DNA from: Eledone cirrhosa
Lineage: Eukaryota
Length of the DNA: 64,000 nucleotides
Reading direction: 5' to 3'
Assembly: GCA_964016885.1 (NCBI GenBank)
Contig: OZ024744.1
Coordinates: forward strand, 71,362,001-71,426,000
The notes under the pieces are model-generated. The model was not told the DNA's origin, ran no database searches, and was given only the letters and a program-made list of their open reading frames with translations. Position 1 is the first letter of the stretch, and the number at the start of each line of letters is the position of its first letter. The position numbers were made by a program, and so were the translations under genes. This document shows, piece after piece, positions 2,992-60,440 of the stretch.

Positions 2992-5900
2992 CTACAGGCT
3001 GATATAGAGAGAAGGCCCATTCACTCGGGCCATTCTCGCCACTTTCACTCACCTTTCATAAAACTTGCTGGGGTACAGCACCTCCCACTCCATCCTGATT
3101 ATTCTTCCAAAGTGGTATTTGAAAAAAAGAATCAGTTGTTGGCTGAAGAGAAAGGTGTGTGACCTCAGCCCTTTCAACCTTGTCCACCATACAACCTCTT
3201 TCGCCATAGCTATCACACAAAGGAAAACCGCCTCTCCCTCGTTTTTGAAGGAGAGTGGCGGTTTGATCATGACCATGGACTCGGTGGTCAACCGGATTGG
3301 TCCCATCCGCGACAATAGTCGTTCTACATAGCCCCACAGGTCAGTGACGCCCGGGCAGTGTATGAATGCGTGCGCGACGGTTTCTTCGTCTCGCACGCAC
3401 CTCGGACAGATCTTTTTTGCAGGGTCCCTGCCCAGGCGCACATGTCTCTAGAGCTTGTCTCGAACTGGTAGAGTTCCTCGGTAGCACTGCCAGGCCAGGG
3501 ACTTTTGGAAGTTGTCAATCGGTCCCGGGCGGAAGGTCCTACCGAACAGACTGGCCAGTTCATCTTCCTCTACGCCTAGAGTTTCACCGAGCGCGTCGTC
3601 GCACTTGCTGCGGATCAACCCTCTACAGAATGACGAAGTGGAGTCTCCACTGATCGCCGGGTCCGCCTGCCAGAAGGCTGTGAGCGCCTGAGCACATTCG
3701 ATGTGCCAGTCGCCCATTTTCCTCGGTCTTTGCTTGACCCAGGCCTGCAGCTCGGTCAGCGAGACGAGTCGTGGGAAGGCTCGCCTCACGAACGGGGCCC
3801 ACACCGGTTGTCCGGTGAGGAATACGTAGAGATGCCGCAGCCTGAGCGCGTGTTTGCGCATCGTCAACCACGGCATCCCAGCCCTCCATTAGAAGGGTGT
3901 TGGCAGCAGATGGATCTTCTCACCAAATGAGCCCGCCTCTTCCAGAGGAATTGGAAGAGCGCGCGCTCCTTTTTGACGAGTGTTTTGGCTGGACAAGGCA
4001 CGACGGTCAAGCGGTAGTAGATGGCGGACGCTATAAAAGTGTTCGCCACCTCCGCTCGACTTTTCAAGGATAGTTTGCACTTGGCCCACTTCTGGGTGAG
4101 TGCAAACACCTTGGCCGTCACTTCGTTCCAGTTCTTCTCCACCTGGAGGTCTGGACAAAACCAGACCCCGAGTAGTTTTACCAGTCCTTCCGTCCAGCGT
4201 CCAACGACGCCATCAGAAGGGATCGGTTTGCTTCTCCACGATCCGAGTTGCAAACCGATATACTTGTCCCGGTTCAGCTTCGCTCCTGTGAAACTTTCGT
4301 ATTCCTTCAGTAAGGTGCCGACTTCCTCGATTTGCGAGGCGCTCGACACCATTAATGAAACGTCGTCGGCGTAGGCCGACGCCGCTTTCCGCAGTCCCGG
4401 TTCCAGAGGGATGCCCTGCAATAGCTCCAACTTCCGCAGTAGTGGCTCGAGAGTCAGTACATACAGAAGGGAGGAGAGAGGGCATCCCTGTCGAATGAAT
4501 CGCGTAATATGGAACGGCTCCGAGAGGTAGCCGTTCACCTTGACCCTTGAGCAGATTCTGCTGTTGTTCATTGCAGCAATCCAGCCTCTGAACACGGGTC
4601 CGAAGCCTGCCGCCTCGAGCATCGCATCCAAGTAACGATGGTCAACCCTATCGAAAGCCTTAGACTGATCCAAGTTGATCAGGGGCCCACCGAAGCCGGG
4701 TTTACACCCTACCCTCTCTATGATGTATCGTATGAGGCGGAGGTTGTCGTGTATGGACCTGGTCGGGATTGTGCATGTCTGCACTTCTCCCACCAGGGTC
4801 TCGACGACAAGCGCCAGCCTCTTTGCCAACACCTTGGCCAAAATCTATAACTCTGTGTTTAGCAGAGTTATGGGCCGGAAGTTGCCTATGTCATCCCCCT
4901 TATTCTTGCCAGTTGCAGTAGACCGCTTCCAGGAGACCGGAGAATAAGTCCGGCATTGCTACGTAAAATTCGTAGGGTAGACCGTCGAGACCTGGAGATT
5001 TGCGTTTTCCGCAATGGCTCAGCGGGTCTCCTATCTCAGTGGCTGAAATCGGCCTTTCGCAGAAATTTGCCTTGCTGTCCAAGAGTTGCGGTAGGCCGTC
5101 GAGGTATGGACCGAAATCCATAGTCCCTCCGGCGCTCCGCCCCTCCCGAACAGTTGAACAAAGTGCCGCTGAAAGGCCGCACACATCTGCTTTGACTCAC
5201 GTGTCACGCGTCCGTTTTGGTCCTTCAAAGACCGAATCGTGGACTTGTTGCCACTTTTTGCCTCCGTCACTCGGGCCCAGCTAACAGCTTTGGCTCCCTC
5301 GTTTCCCAGAGCACGTATTTTGCTTCTGACAACGCAACCCTCAAAGAACTGGTCCAAGGCCGTTCTCGTTGATAGCACGCTGGCTATGTTGACACTTCTA
5401 ATTGCCTCTTCTACTTTATCTACCAGTTCCTTCTCGGTTCTATTTCTATCTAACGCTAATTCTTTACTAAAAACTATCGAATTTAATCTAACTGCCCTCT
5501 TGAGAGAGTACCACCATCTGTTGTTGACAATGGCCCCTGTCAAGTGCTGTTTAACTAAAGTGCTAATCCGTCTACTGTAGGCTTTGCTTGTCGGTAACGA
5601 CAAGTTCAGCTTCCAGTAGCCGGGTACTTGTCTATGGGTTCTATCAAGGTTGGCCATGCAGGTCACTAGTTTGTGATCTGAATAGGCAACCATGAACATT
5701 TGTGGACAGTTTAACATGTCCCTATCCTTATTTCTAACTAGAACCCTATCTAGGTACGATCTAGATGTTCCGCTACGATTACTCCACGTCCACAGTGGCG
5801 CAGTCGGAAAATCTAGTCGATATCTATCGGCCAGGTCAAATCGGTCGATTAACTGTTTGAGGCTGTTACACCCCCCTTTATCGGGACATGCTCCCACATA

Positions 5901-6314
5901 GTCCCAACGTGCATCTAGGATTCCATTCCAGTCCCCCACTAAAAGCAAGGAGCGGGACGTTCCCAGAAAAGTCTCTAGACGTTTGAAGAAGTCTGGCCGC
6001 GGTGTCCCGGATGAGGCATATGCGGCCACCAGCCCGAAGGCTCCCCCTTCACTACCGTCAACGTCTAGGACCACCAGTCGACCCTCCGTGTCCAGATGTA
6101 CCGTCTGTGTTACGAGGCCCAGGTGTTACCGCAGCAAAACGGCAACTCCGCCTCCACCCCCCGGTTGACAGAGGGATGCATAGATCTCAAAGTCATCGAA
6201 GATGGGGGCCAGCTGTCGCTCGCTGTCGATCCTGAACTCGCAAATGGCTACCACATCCATACTGTGCGACCTGAGGCCGCGTACGTTCACACATCCAACT
6301 CTTATATTGGCCAT
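2992..6314 (-). pseudogene. ORF2 (APE endonuclease-reverse transcriptase-CCHC) of copy B, disrupted
   Basis: Consecutive minus-strand ORFs 6126..6350, 5031..6074, 4900..5184, 3864..4841, 3448..3876 and 3049..3441 in shifting frames. ATG at 6314 ('MANIRVGCVNVRGL'). Confidence 0.9.
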
Positions 6315-6342
6315 GTTGGTGCTGTTAAAAGAGGAAAAGAGA

Positions 6343-7971
6343 TCACTCACCCTTCGTCTCCTGGGGACCAGGCCGCACGATTTCCATGGGGGTGTTGGAG
6401 GGGTTGTCTTGATGGGTGGTCGTTTCCGGCGGGGTGGAGATGGAGATGTTTGGTGGGGTGGGGTCTGGTGGGATGGGGGTGTCTGGGGTGGGGAGGCATT
6501 TGTGAAGGACGCAGTTAAGTGGTTTCACGCAGGAATTCCCCACATTCTTCTCAAATGTTTCTTTTAGGGACCTATAAGTTTGTATAGGGACCCTAATCAG
6601 TTTTAGGTTCAGTTTTTTGCTATTTTTTATAGAGTGGGCGAAAGTTTTCCCTTCGGTGAAAACCGAAGGGTCGTTCGTGATGGTCTCCATTAGTGTTTTG
6701 TTTTCAGTGTTTATGTAAGTGTAAGTGTAATTTTCTTGTGTTGTGTTTGTTTTTGTCTGTAGTTCTTGTGTAGGTATTTTGTTTTCAGGAGGTGGGGGTT
6801 TTGTTTGTGATATTTTTGTTGTTTGTGTTGGTGGTTGTATGTTTGTGGTAGTGTTTGCTGGTTTTTTGCTTTTGTGATGTCTTTTCTTTCTTTTCGAGCG
6901 ATGGGGTTCTCCCTCGTCTTCACTGGGTGATGGCGAGATAACCTCATCTGTTGTATCGTCTGTGTGATTGGGGAGGGGTATGTCTTGGGGAGCTGTTGTG
7001 TCTGTATGTGATTTTGCAGTGGTTTTAGGTGGAGTGGGGTTGGGTGGGACTGTGTTTGTTGTGGTTATTTTTGTGTGTTGGTGTTATTGTTGTGGTGGTG
7101 TCGGTGGTTGTGTTGTCTTGATGGGTGTCGGCAGAAGAGCCTTTTTTTTTACTCATTAATTTAGGACAGGAAGCCCTCAGGTGACCCCTGCTAAAGCAAT
7201 GGTAACATGAAGGCCGACTACCCTCAACCAAAAAGTTTATGTAGGTGAGTCCGTCCAGGAGTACACGTTGTGGGATCATAGCTACTCGCTCTGGGCTCAT
7301 TTGCACCAGAACTTCAATGCTAGTCCCATTGAATACATCTCTGGGGGATTTTCCTACTGACAGTATTCTGTCTACATCAAAATTGATGAAGCCCCACAGT
7401 ATCCACCATATGTTCACCCTTGGTGTGACACTCGTGATTTTGATCTTTTGTGTCCTTTTTCCCATGTATGTAGGGAAAAAGGTGTACAGGTTGGATACAA
7501 TTAGCGACACAGAGTAATTTTGGGCCGTCAATTTATCCTTCATGAGTAGCGAAATACTCCCAAAAAGTTTGCTTCTTTGAATGAATGCAATATCATTCAT
7601 TGAACTTTTGAAAACCAGTTAAATTTCTTTCTGTGACAATTGGACTGGTTTTCGGGTAGAATTGGAAACTGTCCTAAAAACTATCGTTTTGAGAGCAGTT
7701 TCTTTGCGAATTTCTACTGGAGAATTGATGCTGAAAGCACCATTTTTTTCGAAGGTGACATATCTCCTAGCGTCCTTTAAAAGTTGTTCGGCATTTGTTA
7801 TGTCGAGATATGTCAGTTCCTCCTTTTTTTTAACTGTCTGTGCAAAGGAGATTTTTGGTTTCTTTGTGGAATTATCCGTGTTGGTGGCGTTGTCATTATT
7901 GTTGTTATTGTTGTTGTTATTCTTGTTGTCACCGATGTTGATATTATTCGTATTTTCCTTGGTGCGTTCAT
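6343..7971 (-). pseudogene. ORF1 (gag-like, CCHC zinc knuckle) of copy B, disrupted
   Basis: ORFs 7025..7600 (CX2CX4HX4C) and 6343..6690; homologous to 25640-26118 and 62440..63681. Confidence 0.85.
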
Positions 7972-21289: not shown

Positions 21290-24200
21290 AGTTTCTATTT
21301 ATTTGCCACGAGGGCACAAAAGAAGGGGACAAATACAAGGGGGGGGGGAGTTTACATAAAGGAACGAGTAAAAAACAAATAAATATAAAATTAACAATAC
21401 AGTCCTCAATAGGGAGGAGGCGTTTTGAGGGTTACACACACCCCGAAAAAGTGTGCAACCCTTTTCCTTAGGAGCACAGAGAGGGGGTGCTCTTTTGACT
21501 TCCACCTTTCCACCTACAGGCTGATAAAGAGAGAAGGCCCATTCACACGGGCCATTCTCGCTACTTTCACCCACCTTTCATAAAACTTGCTGGGGTTGAG
21601 CACCTCTCTCTCCATTCTGATCCTTCTCTTAAAATGGTATTTAAAGAAAAGGACCTGTTGTTGGCCGGAGAGAAAGGTGTTCGACCTCAGCCCTTTCAAA
21701 CGTGTCCACCATACCACCTCTTTCACCATGGCTATTACACAGAGGAAGACCACCTCTCCTTCATTTTTGAAGGGGGAAGGCGGCTTGATCGTTACAATGG
21801 ACTCAGTGGTCAACCGGATTGGTCCCACCCGTGACAGCAGTCGTTCGACATAGCCCCACAGATCGGCAACGCCCGAGCAGTGTACCAATGCGTGCGCAAC
21901 GGTTTCCTCGTCGCGCACGCATCTGGGACAGATTTTTTTCGAGGGGTCCCTACCCGGGCGCCCGTGTCTGTAGAGCTTTTCTCGAACGGGCAGCGCCCCT
22001 CGGTAGCACTGCCAGGCCAGGTAGCACTGCAAGGCTAGGTAGCACTGCCAGGCCAGGTAGCATTGCCATAGGTCCCGGGCTAAATGTCCTCCCGAATAGG
22101 CTGGCCAGTTCGTCTTCCTCCATGCCTAGGGCTTGTCCGAGGGCGTCGTCGCACCTACTAACCACCAACCCTCTATAGAATGACGAGGTGGAATCTCCAC
22201 CGATAGTCGGGTCCGCCTGCCAGAGAGCTGTGAGCACCTGGGCACACTCGGTGTGCTAGGCGCCCAGGTTTCTCGGTCTTTGCTTGACTAAGGACTGCAG
22301 CTCGGTGAGCGAGACGAGTCTCGGAAAGGCTCGCCTCACAAACGGGGCCCACACCGGTTGGCCGGTGAGGATTACCTGGAGGTGCCGTAGCCTTAATGGG
22401 TGTTTACGCATCAGCTGCCACGGCATCCCCAGCCCTCCTTTCGAAGGGTGTTGACAGAAAATGGATCTCCTCACCAAAGGAGCCCGCTTCTTCCAAAGGA
22501 ATTGGAAGAGTGCGCGCCCCATTTTGGTGAGCGTTTCCCTTGGGCAAGGCACGACGGTCAGGCGGTAATAGATGACGGACGCTATATAAGCGTTCGCCAC
22601 CTCCGCCCGACCTTTCAGGGATAGTTTGCACTCAGCCCACTTCCGCGTCAGCGCAAACACCCTGTTCGATAGCTCACCCCAGTTCTTCTCCACCTGGAGG
22701 TCTGGCCCGAACCAGACCCCGAGCAACTTCATCGGGCCCTCCGTCCAATATCCGACGACGCCGTTGGAGGCCATCGGTTTGCCCCTCCACTCGCCGAGTT
22801 GCAAACCGACTTACTTGTCCCGGTTCAGCTTAGCCCCTGTAAACGTTTCGTATTCCTCCAGTAAGGTGCCGATCACTCCGATTTCAGAGGCGGTTGACAC
22901 CATTACTGTCACGTCATCGGCGTAGGCCGACACCGCTTTCCGCAATCCCGGTTCCAAAGGGATGCCCTGTAACAACTCCAACTTCCGCAGCAGTGGCTCT
23001 AGGGCCAATACATACAGAAGGGAGCAGAGAGGGCATCCCTGTCGGATGGACCGCGTGATTTCGAACGGCTCCGAGAAGTAGCCGTTCACCTTGACCCTAG
23101 AGCAGATGCGGCTGCTGTGCATGGCAGTGATCCAGCTCCTGAAAACGGGCCCGAAACCTGCCGCCACTAGCACCGCATCCAGGTTACGATGGTCGACCCT
23201 ATCGAACGCCTTAGATTGATCCAAGTTGATCAGGGCCCACCAAAGCCGGGTTCGTTCCCAACCCTCTCTATGATGTATCGCATGAGATGGAGGTTGTCGT
23301 GAATGGACCTGGACGGGATGGCGCATGTCTGCGCATCTCCCACCAGGTTGCCCACGACAAGCGCCAACCTCTTTGCTAACACCTTGGCCAAAATCTTTAA
23401 CTCTGTATTTAGCAGGCTTAAAATTACTTATTTCATCCCCCTTGTTCTCGTCCTTCCTCACTAGCGAGACTACGCCCTTGATCACAGAACAGGGAATTCT
23501 CCCGTTCTGTTGCCAGTTGCAGTAGACCGCTTCGAGGAGTTCGAAGAACAAGTCCGGCATACTTAAATACAGTTCGTATGGAAGACCATCGAGGCCCGGA
23601 GATTTGCGTCTGCCGCATTGGCTCAGCACGTCCCCTATTTCAGCCGCTGAGATCGGCCTCTCGCAGGACTTCACCTCCTCGTCCGAAAGACGCGGAAGGC
23701 CGTCGAGGTATGGACCGAGGTCCACATCCCCATCCGGCCCCTCGTCCTTTCCGAACAATCGGGCAAAGTGCCTTTGAAAGGCCTCGCACATCTGATTAAG
23801 GTTCAAGGGTCACCCGTCCATCCTGGTCTCGCAAAGACCAGATAGTGGATCTAGTCCCACTTTTGGCTTCTATCACGCGGGCCCAGCTACAGCTTTGGTC
23901 CCCTCGTTGCCCAGAGCACGTATTTTGCTTCGGACAACGCAGCCTTCGTGTTTCGCGTCGAAGAACTGGCCCAAGGCCGTTCTCGACGCTAGCACTCTGG
24001 CTACGTCGCCGCTTCTAATTGCTTCTTCTACACTATCTACCAACTCCCTTTCCTTCCTATTTCTATCTGAGGCTAACTCCTTACTAACTCCTATTGAAGC
24101 TGCTCTAATCTCTCTTTTGAGAGAACCCCACCACCTGCTGTTGACGATGGCGCCCGTCAACCGCTCCTTAACTAATGTGCTAATCCGGTTCCTGTAAGCT

Positions 24201-27075
24201 TTACTTGCCGGTAAGGACAAGTTGAGCTTCCAGTAACCGGGTCCCTGTCTATGCGTTCTATCAAGGTTGACCATGGAGGTCACTAACTTGTGGTCTGAAT
24301 AGCCAACCATGAGCATTTTTGGATAATTTAAAAAGTCCCTATCCTTATTTCTAACTGAGAACCTATCTAGGTACGATCTAGATTGACCGCTGTGGTTTCT
24401 CCAAGTCCAGGTTGTCACAGTCGGAAAATCTAGTCGATATCTATCGGCCAAGTCGAATCGGCCGATTAACCCCTTGAGGCTGTTACAACCCCCTCTATCA
24501 GGACATGACCCCTACATAGTCCCAACGCGCATCTAGGATACCATTCCAGTCCCCCACTAAAAGCAAGGAGGGGGACGTCCCTAGAAAAGTCTCCAGACGA
24601 TGGAAGAAGTCCGGCCGCGTTGACCCAAAAGGGCCGTAGACGGCGACTAGCCAAAAAGCTCCGCCTTCACCACTGCCAATGTCCAGAACCACTAGTCGAC
24701 GCTCCGAGTCCAAGTGCACCGTCTGTGTAGTGAGACCCAGATGTTTTTGCAGCAGAACGACAACCCCACCCCCACCTCCGGGCTGACAGAGAGATGCGTG
24801 CATCTCAAAGTCATCAAAGGTGGGGGCTAGCTGTCGCACGCTGCTGAATCGGGCCTCGCAAATAACCATCACATTTATACATCGTGACCTGAGGTCATTT
24901 AGAAACATTGCTTGCTTCCAAGGTGAGCCCAGGCCACGCGCCTTTAGACAAACTATTCTCAACACAGCCATGTTGGTGGTAAAGAGAAAATGCACTTACC
25001 TCTCTGCGTCCCGGGGACCGGGCCGCACAATTTCCATGGGGGTGGGGGATGGGTGGTTGGGTGGGGTGGTGGTTTGTGGAAGTGTAGGGGCATCAGTGTG
25101 TGGTGGGGTTGGGGTGTTTGGAGTTGTGTGGTTGTCTGGGGGGGATTATTTTAGGACACGGTTAATGGGTATGACGCAGGGGGGCCCCACGCCTCTTTAA
25201 AAGTGTCTTTTAACGTTTTGTAAATGTCCATTGGGGCTTTTATCGTTTTTAGATGGGGAAGCCCCGTTGCTTGTGCGAAATTCGAACCTTCGGTTTTTAT
25301 TAAGTTGTTATTATAAATAACGTTTGACAGTTTTTTGTTTATTGTACTTATGTAGGTATATGCACATTTTTCTTTTTGCGTGATATTTTTTGTTTGCTGT
25401 TGTTGTGTGTTTTTTTTGTGTTGATGGCTTGGGGAGGGGTTGTTTGTATTTGGGTTCCTGTGGTGTGTTTTCTTTTTTTTCTTTTAACTTTATGAAAGTG
25501 TTCCCCCACCCCCTCGTCTGACGACGAAAGGGGGTCGTCTTCCGTATTCGAGGGGAGGGATTCATTTTCGGCTCGTGTTTGTGGTGCGGGTATTATTGTA
25601 TTTGTTTACTATGCAGGTGGGATTGTTTTCAGTTGTGTTTTAACTTGTGGTGTTAGTTGTTTTTGTGGTGGTGGTGGTGGTTGTGTTGGTAGTGTTGTAG
25701 TTGTTGGTGTGGGCAAAATCGGTGTTTTTTTTTGCTTGGGAACAGGCAGACCTCAGGTGACCTCTGCCACCACAGAGGTAACAAGCGGGTCGTCTACCCT
25801 CCACTGTGATGTGTAAGTAGGCAAGCCCATCCAGCAATATGCGGTCGGGATCCTAACAATTCGTTCTGGTTGCATTTGCACCAGAACTTGCAGGTTAGTT
25901 CCACCGAACACGTTGCTGGAAGACTTACCTACCGAAATTACTGCATCCTCTTTCAAGTCGAGGAGGCCACACAGTACCGCCCAGAAATCAATATCTGGAT
26001 CGATACTGTGTATGGTCAATCTTTGTGTTTTTCTTCCCAAATAAGTGGGGAAGAAGGTAAATAAGGGAGACACAATTAGGGCCAGGGAATGTTTTTCGGC
26101 CGTCAATTTATCTTTCATTCGGATGGATAAACTACCGTAGAGTCTATCCTTCCGAATGAATACAATGTTTTTCAGATGATCTTTTAAAGCCAGTTCAATC
26201 TCTGTCTGTGTGAGTTGTACTGGCTTACGGGTTTTGTTTGATATTGTCCTATAAATAATAGTTTTTAAGCTATTTTCCTTTTTTAGCTCTGGGGAGAATT
26301 TAAAGAAAATAGACCATTCTCCTCCAAAGTTATATACTTCCGTGCATTTTCCATTTGCTGGGCCATGTTCGAAATGTCAATAGGTACATACACGATAGAT
26401 TTTTTATGCTTTGCGCGAACGTCATTTTGTTCGCCCCCTCTCTGTTTACATTTGTCGAAATGTGGTTTTCTTGTTTTTTGTTGTTACAATTTTCATTTTT
26501 TGTTGTGTTTGTGTTATTTATGTTGGTGTATGCCTTTACATTTTCCCCCCGTTGGGGTTAGACTCCATTTTTTCAAAATGTTCGCTTATATTTTCAGTAT
26601 CCGAGAGACTTGTAGTCACAGCTGCCACCTCTCTATCACCTTTGCTGGTGGGCGTGGCACTGTGAAAAGTCGAAACGGCATCCATTAATGTGGGCAATTT
26701 CTCCGAGTCAATTTTTTTCACATTTTTTTCATTAGGGTTAGGCTCCATTTTTTCAATGTTTCTAATTATCATTATTATTTCAGTAGGGAGGCTTGTTGCC
26801 TCCGCTACCCGCTCTCCTTCAGTTTGTCTAGTGGGCGTGTCATCGTTACCTGTGGTAATGGCTTCCATTACCACTAGCGTAGAGACAATTACAAGATTTT
26901 TAGGATGAAAAATTTCACCCCAAAAGGGGTGAACTAAATTAACCCTAATGTCCGAAGACCCAGGCAAGGGGGTTAATTAACACAATAACGCAAGAATACA
27001 GACAAACACTTACTGTTAACACGTAATATCTCCAATACTCGAGGAGCCGATGTGAAGCACGTCTATACCATCCGG
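21290..27075 (-). mobile_element. Tx1/L1-clade element copy C, full length, related but distinct subfamily, disrupted
   Basis: ORF1 at about 24996-26868 ('CYLCGGRGHLRSAC'). ORF2 at about 21514-24971 (APE, 'LDQSKAFDRVDH', 'YADD', 'CPRC..HALVHC'). (GA)/(GATA)n on both sides. Confidence 0.93.
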
Positions 27076-45792: not shown

Positions 45793-45845
<53 letters not shown>

Positions 45846-45929
45846 AAGGTATAGATTGAGTTAGAAACTTAAAATAGTCTCTTACAATTAAATAGCTCAA
45901 AGAAAGACATTTCCCGGGCCGTATAACAT

Positions 45930-46441
45930 AATTGAATATAAACGAGAGATAAACACAGATATAAACATATATGTGTTCAAATCGTAAGGGACCAGGTTCG
46001 TCAGGGTGAAAAAAATACTAACTATTAACAATAGGGTTTGCCAGAGTCAATTTAAAATAACAAATCAAGAAAATAAATGCAAACCGATATTGGGTATGCG
46101 TTTATGAGACACGCTAGGTCCTGATGCCATGTACGTTATTTTATATACGCACACTATTCAGTGTTCTGAGATACTTAGAAGTGAAGGGTTTACTAATTTT
46201 ACACCCACTGATGAGCAAAGAATTGGTAATTCATTTCGCTAAAATTGCGAAACAGCATCACCAAAAGCTGTCTGGGTGTCTGGCAGTTGCCCCGATATCG
46301 GTTTGTATTTATTTTCTTGATTTGTTATTTTAAATTGAGTCTGGCAAACCCAATTGTCTATAGTTAGTATTTTTTCCACCCTAGCGAATCTGGTCCCTTA
46401 CGATTTGAACACATATATGTGTTTATCTCTCTTTTATATTC

Positions 46442-46445
<4 letters not shown>
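45930..46445 (+). mobile_element. Non-coding Penelope-like element: inverted tail, hammerhead, tail
   Basis: 45930-46094 is the reverse complement of 46290-46445. The spacer contains a canonical hammerhead. Adjacent to (TA)n/(CT)n. Confidence 0.78.
46201..46279 (+). ncRNA. Canonical type I hammerhead ribozyme
   Basis: ACACCCA-CTGATGA-GCAA(26 nt)TTGC-GAAA-CAGC(10 nt)GCTG-TC-TGGGTGT: all core nucleotides and three perfect stems; predicted cleavage after C46272. Confidence 0.88.
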
Positions 46446-46503
<58 letters not shown>

Positions 46504-46518
46504 GTGTATATATATATA

Positions 46519-46635
<117 letters not shown>

Positions 46636-46648
46636 ATATATATATATA

Positions 46649-46749
<101 letters not shown>

Positions 46750-46764
46750 ATATATATATATATA

Positions 46765-46826
<62 letters not shown>

Positions 46827-47196
46827 GTGTGTGTGTATATATAATATATTACAAAATAATCTATATGTATATAATATACATATCTCTGTGTGTAAATTCC
46901 AAGAACAATTTTAAATAAAGCCATTCAATATTTTCAGAAAAATATAAAAAAAGTAAGGAATTTCTTTTTCTTTGCATATGGAAGATATTTCCAGGGCAGT
47001 ATCAGTGAAAACGAGGCGCAAATATAGAATGAAATAACTGCTCCACCTCTAAACCTCTCCACTCAACTTCAGATACAAAAGACAAGGTGTTTTTTGTTTT
47101 TGTTTTTGAGTGGGGTGGAAGGATTGCATGTGTTTTTAATAAATTCCTTTACAGAAAGGAAATTAAACAAAGTCTAAAATAAAACAAACCGGCGGC

Positions 47197-47472
<276 letters not shown>

Positions 47473-47959
47473 GAGGAATTACGAAATAATATGTTAGAGG
47501 TGAGAGTAAGGGTGGAGAATAAGAAGTATATAAATTGATGAAATAAAAATATAATTAAAAAAAATACAAGAAAAGTATAAATGAAGAGTAGAGACGAGGG
47601 AAATTTGAAAACAAACGAAAAAAAAAAAAAAAAAGGATAGAGAAAATAGGTTCTCCCCGATCCGACCCCACCCACATCAAGTTCCTATCTGAATGTTGAA
47701 TATTAACAATACCGACATACGTATATTAAACTGTGTTGCGGCTTTCATGGTGTGTTATAGCTTTGAGATGAGAGTAAAATAAAGAAAATATTTAAACGTA
47801 AAAGTAAAATAAAAAACGTCGGTGGTGATTATAAGAAAACTTTCAAGCCAGTTTTACGAATAAATCAAACGTATTATTTATACCAGTTTGTTGTACATTA
47901 GAATTACAGTACTGACATACACCACACCAGTAATAAAATGGGGCACATTAAAATTACAT

Positions 47960-48400
47960 ATACACCACAGTAACACTACTATACACTACACCAACACTAC
48001 CACAAAACATACGAACATTGCCATACACCACACCAACAATGCCTTACACCACGATATCAACAATGCCATACTCCACGTCAACCCTACCATATACTATATC
48101 AACACTACCGTACATCACACTAACACACCAACACTACCATACACCACACCAACACTACCATACACCACACCAAAATTGCCATACACCACGTCATCACTAC
48201 CCTGCACCACACCAACTCCAGCACTGCCATACACGGCACCACTACGCCAACATACACCACACCAACACTGTCATACACCATTCCAACTGGATCATACACC
48301 CCGATACTTCTATATTTTATGATAACAGTATCATACACAACACAGTTACTTATGTAGACATACGCCATACACAACAATACAAATATACCTTAAAACACCT
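47960..48400. repeat. Degenerate ~21-bp minisatellite (ACACCACACCAACACTACCAT)
   Basis: Direct reading; resumes at 48745-48820 after the LINE fragment. Confidence 0.75.
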
Positions 48401-53787: not shown

Positions 53788-54011
53788 GTATATATATATG
53801 TGTGTTTAAAATACCTTGGCATTTAAACATTCAAACACATATATAAATATGTGTGTGTATGTATCTGTGTCTGTGTAATGTATGTATACATACATATATA
53901 TATACACAGACACACACACACACGCATATATATATATATATATATGTATATATATGTGTTTGAATGTTTAAAGGCCAAGGTATTTTAAACACACATATAT
54001 ATATACATATA

Positions 54012-58299: not shown

Positions 58300-60440
58300 G
58301 GATTCAGTTGCTTCTGCTCAATTTACCCCCCTTCATCTCTAGGACTCTACACTTATTAACACCAAATTCCATACATATATCATTGCTGAAAATACGGACA
58401 GTGTCAACAAGTACATCCAATTCCTTCTCACTCTTCCCCAAAAATGTAAGATCGTCCATGAAGAGGAGGTGGTTTATGGTAAGCTCTCCTCTTCCCAGCT
58501 TGTATCCTGCTCTCACTTTTCGCAATATAACGGACAGGGGTATCAGGGTAAAGACAAACAACAAAGGGGACAAACTATCTCCCTGGAAGATACCTATCTC
58601 GATCTTCACGCCTACCAAGGATTCTCCACCTGATGTTATCTCTGTTTCCCAGGACTTCATACTTTTACTTAATAACTGTCTGATGTTGTCTGTCACTTTG
58701 AAGATCTCTAGGCCTTTGGTTATCCAAGAATGAGGTACCATGTCGAATGTCTTTTTGTACTCTATCCATCCTATGGCAAGACCAGTGTGTCTCCTTTTGC
58801 AATTCTTCATTACCATCTTATCAATAAGTAACTGGTCCTTTGTACCACGGGACTTCTTTCGGCATCCTTTCTGTTCGTCCGGTAACAAGTTGTTTGTGTG
58901 GAGGTGATGGTAGATTTCCTCAGACACAATGCTTGTTAACAGTTTCCACATTACGGACAGACATGTGATAGGTCTATAGTTGGTAACATCATTACCCTTG
59001 ATTCGGTCTTTCATTACCAGAACTGTGGTACCCTTTGTCAACCACTCTAGTACCTCACCCGACATCAAGCAGTCATTGAACATGGCTGTCAGTTTTGGGT
59101 GGAGGGATGCTATATTTTTAATCCAATACCCCTGCACACCATCTGGGCCTAGTGATTTCCAATTGGTTATTTTTTTTGGCTGCCCTTTAAGAGTTTCAAC
59201 TGTGATACTCAAATCAGGTTGTTGATGTGCTTGTTCACTACTCTCCTTGTGAACTGACACAATCCACACTGCATGACTATTATGTTCAACATCCTGCTCC
59301 CATATTCCTCTCCAGAATGTCTTATTCTGTTCCGCCTCAGGGATCACGTCATTGCCTATTTCTTTCCTTTGAAGCTGTTCAAACAGCATCTTCTGGTTGT
59401 TGTCAAACATGCGGTTCTGTCTATACTGACTGACTCTGCTCTCATACCGCCTAATCTTTGAACATTTTGCTACAATGCGTTGCTTCAGTTCCTCTATGAT
59501 AACATTTAGCTCTTTTCCCCGAGTTTTGTATTTTACTTTCAATCTATTTTTAGTGTCTATGTTTTGCAATGTCCCATTCAGTAAAGACTCAAGCTTTCCA
59601 ATGTCTTTTCTCATTTCTTTGATTTGACCATTCAGTCGTTTCTTCCACCAAGGTTCTGATCTTTCTTGTTTGTTGTTTCCTCTCGTTTTTATACCAAGTA
59701 ATTTTTTCACCACATTTGCGGTTGCTTTGAGGATATTGTTGCATTGGTGAAGGTTCCTCGCCTCAATGTATAGGATGACTTTATTTACCTTAGCTGTTGT
59801 TTCTTTTAACCTTTTCCTGTCTACAAATTATAGGCTTTCCACTATCATTGTTCATTTCATCTACCACTAAGTTCAGAATAACAACCAAATCTTGCCCTAG
59901 CCTATCAGCATTCATTTCCTCAATGGCTATATCTTTGTTCCAGATGTTATTTATTTCAGCATTCAGATCATTGTCTGCTTCGGTTGCTTCCTCGGATCTC
60001 TCAATTTCTTCACCTTCATTTCCCACTGGCTCATTTGCTTGATATACTCCACTCTCCATTTCCAACTCAATCTCTCTGCTCAGTTCCTCCAGTTCCAACT
60101 CGCTCACCCATCCATTAGTTATTATTACACGAGCTTGACCGGCAAATTTTTGTTCACCTAATTTAAATAGACTAATTTTGTTCCAGATGTTATGCATCTG
60201 TTTTCTATAGCTATTTTCCATGGGGTTACTCTTCAGGTAACATTTCATGACAGTTCTATTCAATTCTTTCGTCCAGTTGGTTTTGTCCCATTCCTTCTTC
60301 TTCCTCCAACACCAGTAGTATTTGAATGACAACCAGTTCCATGCGGCTGGGCCAGGGAGCACTTGCTGGGTGAGAGTCTTTCACATGCCGTTTTAGTCTC
60401 CTTTTCACCGTTATTGGAACTGTTTAGGTTCGACATTTAA
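58300..60440 (-). mobile_element. Second R4/Dong-like element, 5' half with RT
   Basis: ORF 58304..59713 ('NYRPITCL', 'GTKDQLLID', 'IFQGDSLSPLLF', 'HLLFMDDL') and N-terminal ORF 59790..60362. Confidence 0.88.

Follow-up and report, generated by a model that had tools for sequence, protein, structure and literature searches.

Retrozymes and their proposed dependence on Penelope-like elements (PLEs) are already known (PMC7229834; PMC7761336; bioRxiv 2026.07.22.740005). Retrozymes of coral, mussel and axolotl yield circles (PMC7229834), and among the hammerheads of invertebrate retrozymes most cleave as monomers and have a helix III that is stable (PMC7761336). In Xenopus, eight of nine predicted retrozymes showed no cleavage in vitro, and the same preprint bases the link to the mobiliser on pLTR homology (bioRxiv 2026.07.22.740005). 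PLE insertions are mostly 5′-truncated, and inverted pieces are common among them (PMC8557442). The Hydra clade of PLEs is described as having RWK, DKT, CxCx5C, CxxC and CxH motifs, a C-terminal endonuclease (EN) and insertion into (TA)n (PMC8557442, section 11). For the PAc element of the anole, unprocessed RNA was the main substrate, and cleavage required protein (PMC11167929, section 3 part 2). In the accessible parts of PMC7229834 and PMC8557442, the enzyme that copies animal retrozymes and the origin of the Penelope tail and inverted halves are left as open questions.

The window analysed here, a 64-kb stretch of DNA, sits on contig C28 of a 3.0-Gb, microsatellite-rich animal genome. We consider it probable that a non-LTR retrozyme gave rise to the locus described below, a dead-end copy, and that its likely mobiliser, acting in trans, was a Hydra-clade PLE. 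Its likeness to non-LTR retrozymes (PMC7229834; bioRxiv 10.64898/2026.07.22.740005) lies in a non-coding, GC-poor (31–37%) unit arranged head to tail, in which a single type I hammerhead with a stable helix III is found, and in numerous dispersed copies accompanied by PLEs. The units, at 485–547 nt, exceed the 150–450 nt given in PMC7229834 and fall within the 51–972 nt of bioRxiv 2026.07.22.740005. They occur mostly as one to two units with PLE-type inverted halves, in contrast to long arrays (PMC7229834), and contain a cis-motif that points to the mobiliser, whereas the 2020 review, in its accessible text, denies such a motif (PMC7761336). With the Hydra clade (PMC8557442), the locus and its relatives share (TA)n targets, partial tandems, inverted 5′-truncated copies, a tail at one end and a hammerhead upstream of the ends. 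They differ in that the unit has no ORF, the hammerhead is larger with a long loop II, and the tail measures 79–83 nt (92 in the PLE family P2 introduced below) rather than the 30–40 bp described (PMC8557442).

Table 1. Features of the locus and of related elements; coordinates refer to the window unless a locus identifier precedes them.
Feature	Location	Strand	Description or basis
Type I hammerhead	46201..46279	+	all parts placed; descriptor; conservation in copies
Stem I	46201-07/46273-79	+	7 bp
Core CUGAUGA	46208-14	+	sequence
Stem II	46215-18/46245-48	+	4 bp, closing the 26-nt loop II
Core GAAA	46249-52	+	sequence
Stem III	46252-56/46267-71	+	5 bp including A15.1-U16.1
GUC	46270-72	+	predicted cut after C46272
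Helix Pb	46190-46200 with 46219-46229	+	11 contiguous pairs, adjoining stems I and II
Helix Pa	46180-88 with 46232-40	+	continuation of Pb, with two G-U pairs plus a mismatch in the window copy
Inverted 5′-truncated unit copy	45843..46094	-	unit ~268-518; BLAST against full unit L027:1430-1947, 89%
Main 5′-truncated unit copy with hammerhead	46093..46445	+	unit ~70-429; 88% to L027:1430-1947
Inversion junction	46093..46094	.	1-2 nt common to both pieces
First twin hairpin CGGCTC...GAGCT	45894..45921	-	one change in the window copy; just 3′ of the short end site
Left-flank (TA)n target microsatellite	45800..45842	.	sequence
Right flank, (CT)n then (TA)n	46446..46800	.	sequence
Broken LINE-like elements (RVT_1, endonuclease, zf-RVT pieces)	3864-7618, 21514-24995, 58304-60380	-	profile matches
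Family B, 98-99% identical copies	L140:1227-2688		stem II with only 2-3 contiguous pairs
P2, young Hydra-clade PLE	L241:1900-6870 (G000:C15:42262400-42267370)		4973-bp tandem unit
Neptune-like PLE (RT, zinc-finger linker, C-terminal GIY-YIG)	L114:3780-6960; L118:3650-6860	-	minimal hammerhead in the 3′ region

The hammerhead has every part where the preliminary description had placed it. CUGANGA, GAAA and NUH are present together with stems I–III, and the arrangement is of type I, with loops II and III closed and stem I open. A descriptor requiring stems I/II/III of at least 6/3/4 bp matched once on both strands of the 64-kb window and in none of 100 dinucleotide shuffles. The Rfam comparison that had been proposed did not return a hammerhead: at the gathering score nothing matched across the 64-kb window, and at E ≤ 10 over 45800–46600 no hammerhead model was among the 10 weak matches. 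The long loop II is likely responsible for this miss, and an Rfam match is a convenience for hammerheads, not a defining property. The hammerhead as such is an ordinary feature of a known class, and the full stem III had been overstated as unusual, since a stable helix III is usual in invertebrate retrozymes (PMC7761336). An ATG inside the hammerhead core starts a 41-codon frame.

The locus consists of two truncated copies of a 516-nt unit in opposite orientations. The 3′ end of the inverted copy is the “long” end, which runs into (TA)n, while that of the main copy is the “short” end, located at unit position 433 in most copies. The second of the twin hairpins is absent from this insertion, its place being beyond the long end. 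The inverted repeat of about 160 bp reported earlier does exist (45930–46094 against 46291–46445, 87% identity over 165 columns); as a terminal repeat it does not stand, because the left arm reaches 45843 and is thus about 250 bp long. It is the overlap of two truncated, oppositely oriented pieces, and the 13 of 154 differences between its arms are unexceptional among insertions of the same family. Reading frames overlapping the locus are of low complexity only. No RT/GIY-YIG ORF lies within the unit, and the unit end joins the unit start, so the unit is not an autonomous PLE. The hallmarks of Penelope-type insertion are present, namely 5′ truncation, partial tandems, an inverted truncated copy and a tail at one end; target-site duplications are illegible in the microsatellite flanks. 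Judged from this anatomy, the locus is a Penelope-type insertion with an inverted, 5′-truncated second copy, and the earlier assignment to a non-autonomous, ribozyme-bearing retroelement of the retrozyme/Penelope world agrees with a non-coding unit family inserted in this manner. The three RT-bearing elements of the window are LINE-like, with RVT_1 and Exo_endo_phos or zf-RVT pieces, and do not match the unit. Elsewhere in the window, (CAT)n/(CAA)n forms a long microsatellite and a 21-bp repeat a minisatellite, at 47163–47480 and 47900–48320. A weak terminal-profile match at 53862–53980 on the minus strand (E 0.009) and lone matches to the hairpin motif at 23027 and 42779, both on the minus strand, are probably decayed or due to chance.

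Copies of the unit are numerous. The 196-bp spacer of the inverted repeat, used as a genome query, gave 1742 first-look candidates, 40 of which were scored and yielded 41 other matches at 90–94%; an exact pattern through the core and stem II found 56 copies, and its reversed control none. The full copy L027:1430–1947 served as a map and revealed the 516-nt unit to be repeated head to tail. The resulting family A set comprises 68 distinct insertions from 90 loci, which are the best-ranked matches of three queries and hence a non-random sample. Both strands are represented in 43 of the 68 insertions and one strand only in 25, so the inverted repeat does not define the element as had been proposed; each insertion has its own arm lengths and end points. 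Head-to-tail junctions occur in 41 and outward-facing 3′ ends on both sides (tail-out) in 42 of the 68. Two tandem hammerheads are seen in L044/L045 and, in the sister family B described below, in L140.

Selection on the ribozyme was assessed in 30 loci chosen by the first 131 nt of the unit, outside the ribozyme, 28 of which span the hammerhead. Core departures in these 28 copies number 14 of 364, against 32 expected at a base-matched background, and the core is intact in 21 of the 28. Departure rates are 3.1% in stem II, 6.1% in stem I, 10.3% in stem III, 20% in loop III and 7.3–9.6% in the flanks. Within family A, stem III is therefore not conserved above the flanks in this unbiased set (10.3% vs 7.3–9.6%), and across the sister families stems I and III retain their pairing despite differing sequence. 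The conservation that the preliminary description had named as a check is thus observed in the core, which lies above background, and in stems I and III, which are compensated across families. This pattern fits selection on the copying lineages and decay after insertion.

Together with non-coding sister families, the unit forms a group that is inserted in (TA)n and spans 485–547 nt. Family B, reached through a piece 70% like the 3′ half of the unit, has a 547-nt unit and 2231 candidates, and its top copies are 95–99% identical. Its hammerhead is a type I of its own, in which stem I has 9 bp and the stem III domain 65 nt. The layout of A and B recurs in families C, D (485 nt), E and F. A pattern of flank, core and loop gave 554 matches against 3 in the control; when the pattern ran across both hairpins, the figures were 347 and 0. 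Three further loci (L193, L200 and L202) represent another repeat family, unrelated to the unit, in which CUGANGA follows a GTTCA-like stem and GAAA is missing from its usual place.

The 3′ ends of the insertions fall at two sites. In family A, 78 of 110 outer 3′ ends lie at unit position 433 (33 ends) or 516 (45 ends), and a TA run adjoins 66 of these 78; in family B, 44 of 46 ends lie at position 468 or 547. The two sites are about 80 nt apart, and each precedes by a few bases a CGGCTC...GAGCT hairpin, whose stem is invariant in all nine aligned sequences (four from retrozymes and five from Hydra elements). Among the 42 tail-out insertions of family A, 20 combine a long with a short end, none has two long or two short ends, and 22 contain an unclassed end. 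The corresponding insertions of family B combine long and short in 16 of 17 cases, with one unclassed. We take the end sites as putative start points of reverse transcription, because for Poseidon in vitro both strands are nicked and there are two internal RT starts (PMC11167929). The Poseidon element PAc of Anolis resembles the present families in that both strands are nicked and extended and that two internal RT starts define the tail. It differs in starting inside a stem-loop rich in AC within the ORF, and the accessible sections of that paper report no strand difference (PMC11167929); by contrast, the starts here precede a pair of homologous hairpins, with one start of each kind used per insertion.

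The same twin hairpins are borne by four Hydra-clade PLE families with RT/GIY-YIG ORFs. The motif in the GIY-YIG locus L118 led to family P2, at least 20 copies of which are identical over the last 269 bp; many retain open frames of 800+ aa, and an RT piece of P2 has 39,850 first-look candidates genome-wide. P2 carries a small hammerhead 5′ of the twin hairpins. Its 844-aa frame contains RWR, DKT, YRDD, CxCx5C, GIY-YIG-like, CxxC and CxH motifs, and the protein resembles published Hydra proteins by eye, while Pfam and PDB searches did not recognise the Hydra protein. By these motifs, with RWR for RWK, and by insertion into (TA)n, P2 and its relatives are assignable to the Hydra clade. Both hairpins are located upstream of the ORF in three of four P2 loci and, 99–112 nt apart, in 9 of 20 loci of the three other families, the rest being truncated or decayed. 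The P2 ends comprise 40 long, 13 short, none elsewhere and 24 read-through, with some loci counted twice. In 11 of 11 distinct insertions, a P2 long end is accompanied by a short inverted partner; the query used there included the long end. When the last 250 nt of the unit were compared with Hydra elements, none of 24 loci aligned at E ≤ 1, barring two separate retrozyme insertions. The link between retrozymes and Hydra elements therefore rests on the motif, the end rule and the target, and the exact partner is likely not among the elements examined. By eye, the published consensus of Hydra-1_Obim has no such hairpin in its first 250 nt, and thus the twin-hairpin motif is not clade-wide. A pattern for a short hammerhead near the first hairpin had no matches.

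Through helices Pb and Pa, loop II pairs with the 5′ flank over approximately 20 bp, with changes that compensate each other across families, and Pb is a pseudoknot if stems I and II form. In 63 family A sequences, 661 of 693 cells are paired in Pb and 527 of 618 in Pa, the latter count including one mostly unpaired column. At the Pa pair 46187:46233, 34 of the 63 sequences have G-C and 14 have A-U, a change that probably reflects one or two events. The flank/loop II duplex outperforms all 300 shuffles in 12 of 16 family representatives, with 1, 2, 7 and 34 of 300 unbeaten in the others; 13 of the 16 came from a pattern demanding the Pa core, and in five the parsed stem I was short. With the common Pa core removed, six cognate pairings were matched by 8 of 720 permutations. 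Families A–E were first met without the Pa pattern, and their flank/loop II pairing is visible by eye. The GAATT/AATTC mini-hairpin described earlier in loop II is present in sequence, with 297 of 314 cells “paired” in family A, a frequency like that of Pb; as a structure it fares poorly, with a pairing probability of at most 0.16 in all eight folds and competition from the 11-bp Pb, a helix that the preliminary description had overlooked. Just upstream of Pa, at 46164–46180, a small hairpin forms with a probability of 0.07–0.90 depending on the construct and has counterparts by eye in families B, D and F.

The fold calculations cover nested structures, with pseudoknots outside the model. None of the seven nested folds that are long enough for stem II gives it a probability above 0.00, the hammerhead forced into 46150–46330 lies 6.6 kcal/mol above the minimum, and the long flank/loop II hairpin reaches at least 0.95 before stem II is complete. 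Since stem II never forms in these folds, self-cleavage of the window copy as a monomer, which had been anticipated, appears doubtful, with chances near even. On geometric grounds, a 20-bp flank/loop II helix with a linker of 4–10 nt should be unable to coexist in full with stem II. The helix most likely acts in two states: in one, a pseudoknot, the Pb part would brace stems I and II; in the other, all 20 bp would form, excluding stem II and keeping the RNA uncut. Short pseudoknots of this type speed hammerheads (PMC3088659). The braced hammerheads of that study likewise pair the stem I side with the stem II side by Watson-Crick pairs, as predicted in about 40% of hammerheads; its examples have 4–6 bp, against 11 contiguous plus about nine more pairs here. 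In circular folds the 5′ flank has a second partner some 90 nt downstream of the cut, which was tried and rejected: it reached -11 to -14.5 against approximately -10 for shuffles in four rows and showed no covariation by eye.

Regarding the template, 5′ ends would be expected to accumulate at the cut site if a linear cut RNA had been copied; they do not in family A or B, where 1 of 123 and 1 of 50 5′ ends, respectively, fall within 5 nt of it. Strands longer than one unit number 27 in family A (up to 748 nt) and 17 in family B (up to 1166 nt). Given this absence of clustering and the strands exceeding one unit, the template was either circular or multimeric and uncut. Four units were folded in circular form, and each was better than its 40 shuffles, with z of -2.5 to -4.0. 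In family A, overlaps are closer within an insertion than they are across insertions for 31 of 37 inverted pairs and for 21 of 25 tandem ones; the tendency is weaker in family B (14 of 25 and 12 of 18). Divergence within and between insertions is 7.7% vs 10.1% in A and 1.7% vs 2.3% in B, and does not separate a circular from a linear template. We favour the circle, because short arrays must regain length and because the retrozymes of coral, mussel and axolotl give circles. In the cycle that we propose, a host polymerase would read through a tandem source locus, and two hammerheads would cut out a monomer that is then ligated to a circle. A Hydra RT/GIY-YIG protein would bind both CGGCTC...GAGCT hairpins and nick both strands of a (TA)n tract. 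Reverse transcription would start immediately 5′ of the hairpins, with one nick priming at each, aided by the short TA runs at both priming sites. One cDNA would often pass its start and exceed one unit, while the other would stop early and be joined in inverted orientation. The window copy would be such a two-primer product; with one hammerhead and less than one unit, it cannot itself make a circle and, whether it cuts or not, is a dead end.

The strongest competitor, though an unlikely one, is a non-autonomous Penelope derivative copied from uncut linear tandem transcripts with no circle, in which the hammerhead is kept for another step, such as 5′ end formation or protein-assisted or dimeric cleavage. 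It predicts the same insertion anatomy, and read-through of the cut site suits an uncut tandem transcript as well as a circle. The modestly greater closeness of repeats within insertions does not discriminate between the templates, the anole PAc element uses unprocessed RNA in vitro (PMC11167929), and stem II is unfavourable in nested folds. However, read-through cannot lengthen arrays, yet most copies are about 1–1.5 units long; the group is also old enough to have split into families 70% alike with compensated stems, and circles are produced by the animal retrozymes cited above (PMC7229834).

That the unit is instead a pseudo-LTR or a 3′ fragment of an autonomous PLE whose coding copies lie outside the sample is very improbable. 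The truncation and frequent inversion of PLE insertions (PMC8557442) would suit it, and the sample takes in 68 of more than 1700 unit candidates and a minority of the 39,850 Hydra-protein and 10,595 GIY-YIG candidates. On the other hand, the 41 head-to-tail junctions join unit end to unit start, and no mapped locus shows the unit entering an ORF, including the best 30 matches to its first 131 nt. Moreover, the second hairpin leads into the ORF in P2 but back to the hammerhead in the unit. A MITE-like element with fixed 160-bp terminal inverted repeats and a captured hammerhead has both 87% identical arms in its favour; it is refuted, to the point of a negligible probability, by the arms and end points that vary in every insertion, the 25 insertions without an inverted part and the 250-bp left arm.

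Beyond the preferred reading of a retrozyme mobilised in trans, we tentatively propose, as a possibility that is on balance doubtful, that retrozymes mimic the two-hairpin RT-loading signal of Hydra PLEs with the hammerhead as a conformational switch, which would make the two a defined retrozyme–RT pair. One RNA would bind two RT/EN units, each priming from one nicked strand at its own hairpin, which would account for both the Penelope tail and the tail-out inversions. The 20-bp flank/loop II helix would hold the circle off, and its proximal half would brace the active fold. In the full-text literature, which includes few subscription papers, we found no report of twin hairpins common to Hydra elements and retrozymes, and none that describes the one-long-one-short rule or a 20-bp flank/loop II helix. 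The common hairpin and the end rule turn both the copying enzyme and the origin of tail and inverted halves into direct experiments with the parts of one genome, and nature supplies, in the long loop II helix, a design for switching a hammerhead on and off. If the mimicry holds, the pair would be the first defined one for reconstituting rolling-circle retrotransposition, and its parts, intact 844-aa Hydra ORFs and a young family of 98–99% identical copies, lie in one genome.

A Neptune-like partner was also considered and rejected, as the unit-like pieces beside GIY-YIG ORFs in L063, L114, L122 and L129 are separate insertions that share their (TA)n tracts. Across 40 GIY-YIG loci, the hairpin is confined to separate retrozyme insertions and one P2 piece. 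The Neptune-like PLE is itself inserted in (TA)n beside other PLE and retrozyme pieces, and these microsatellites gather nested insertions.
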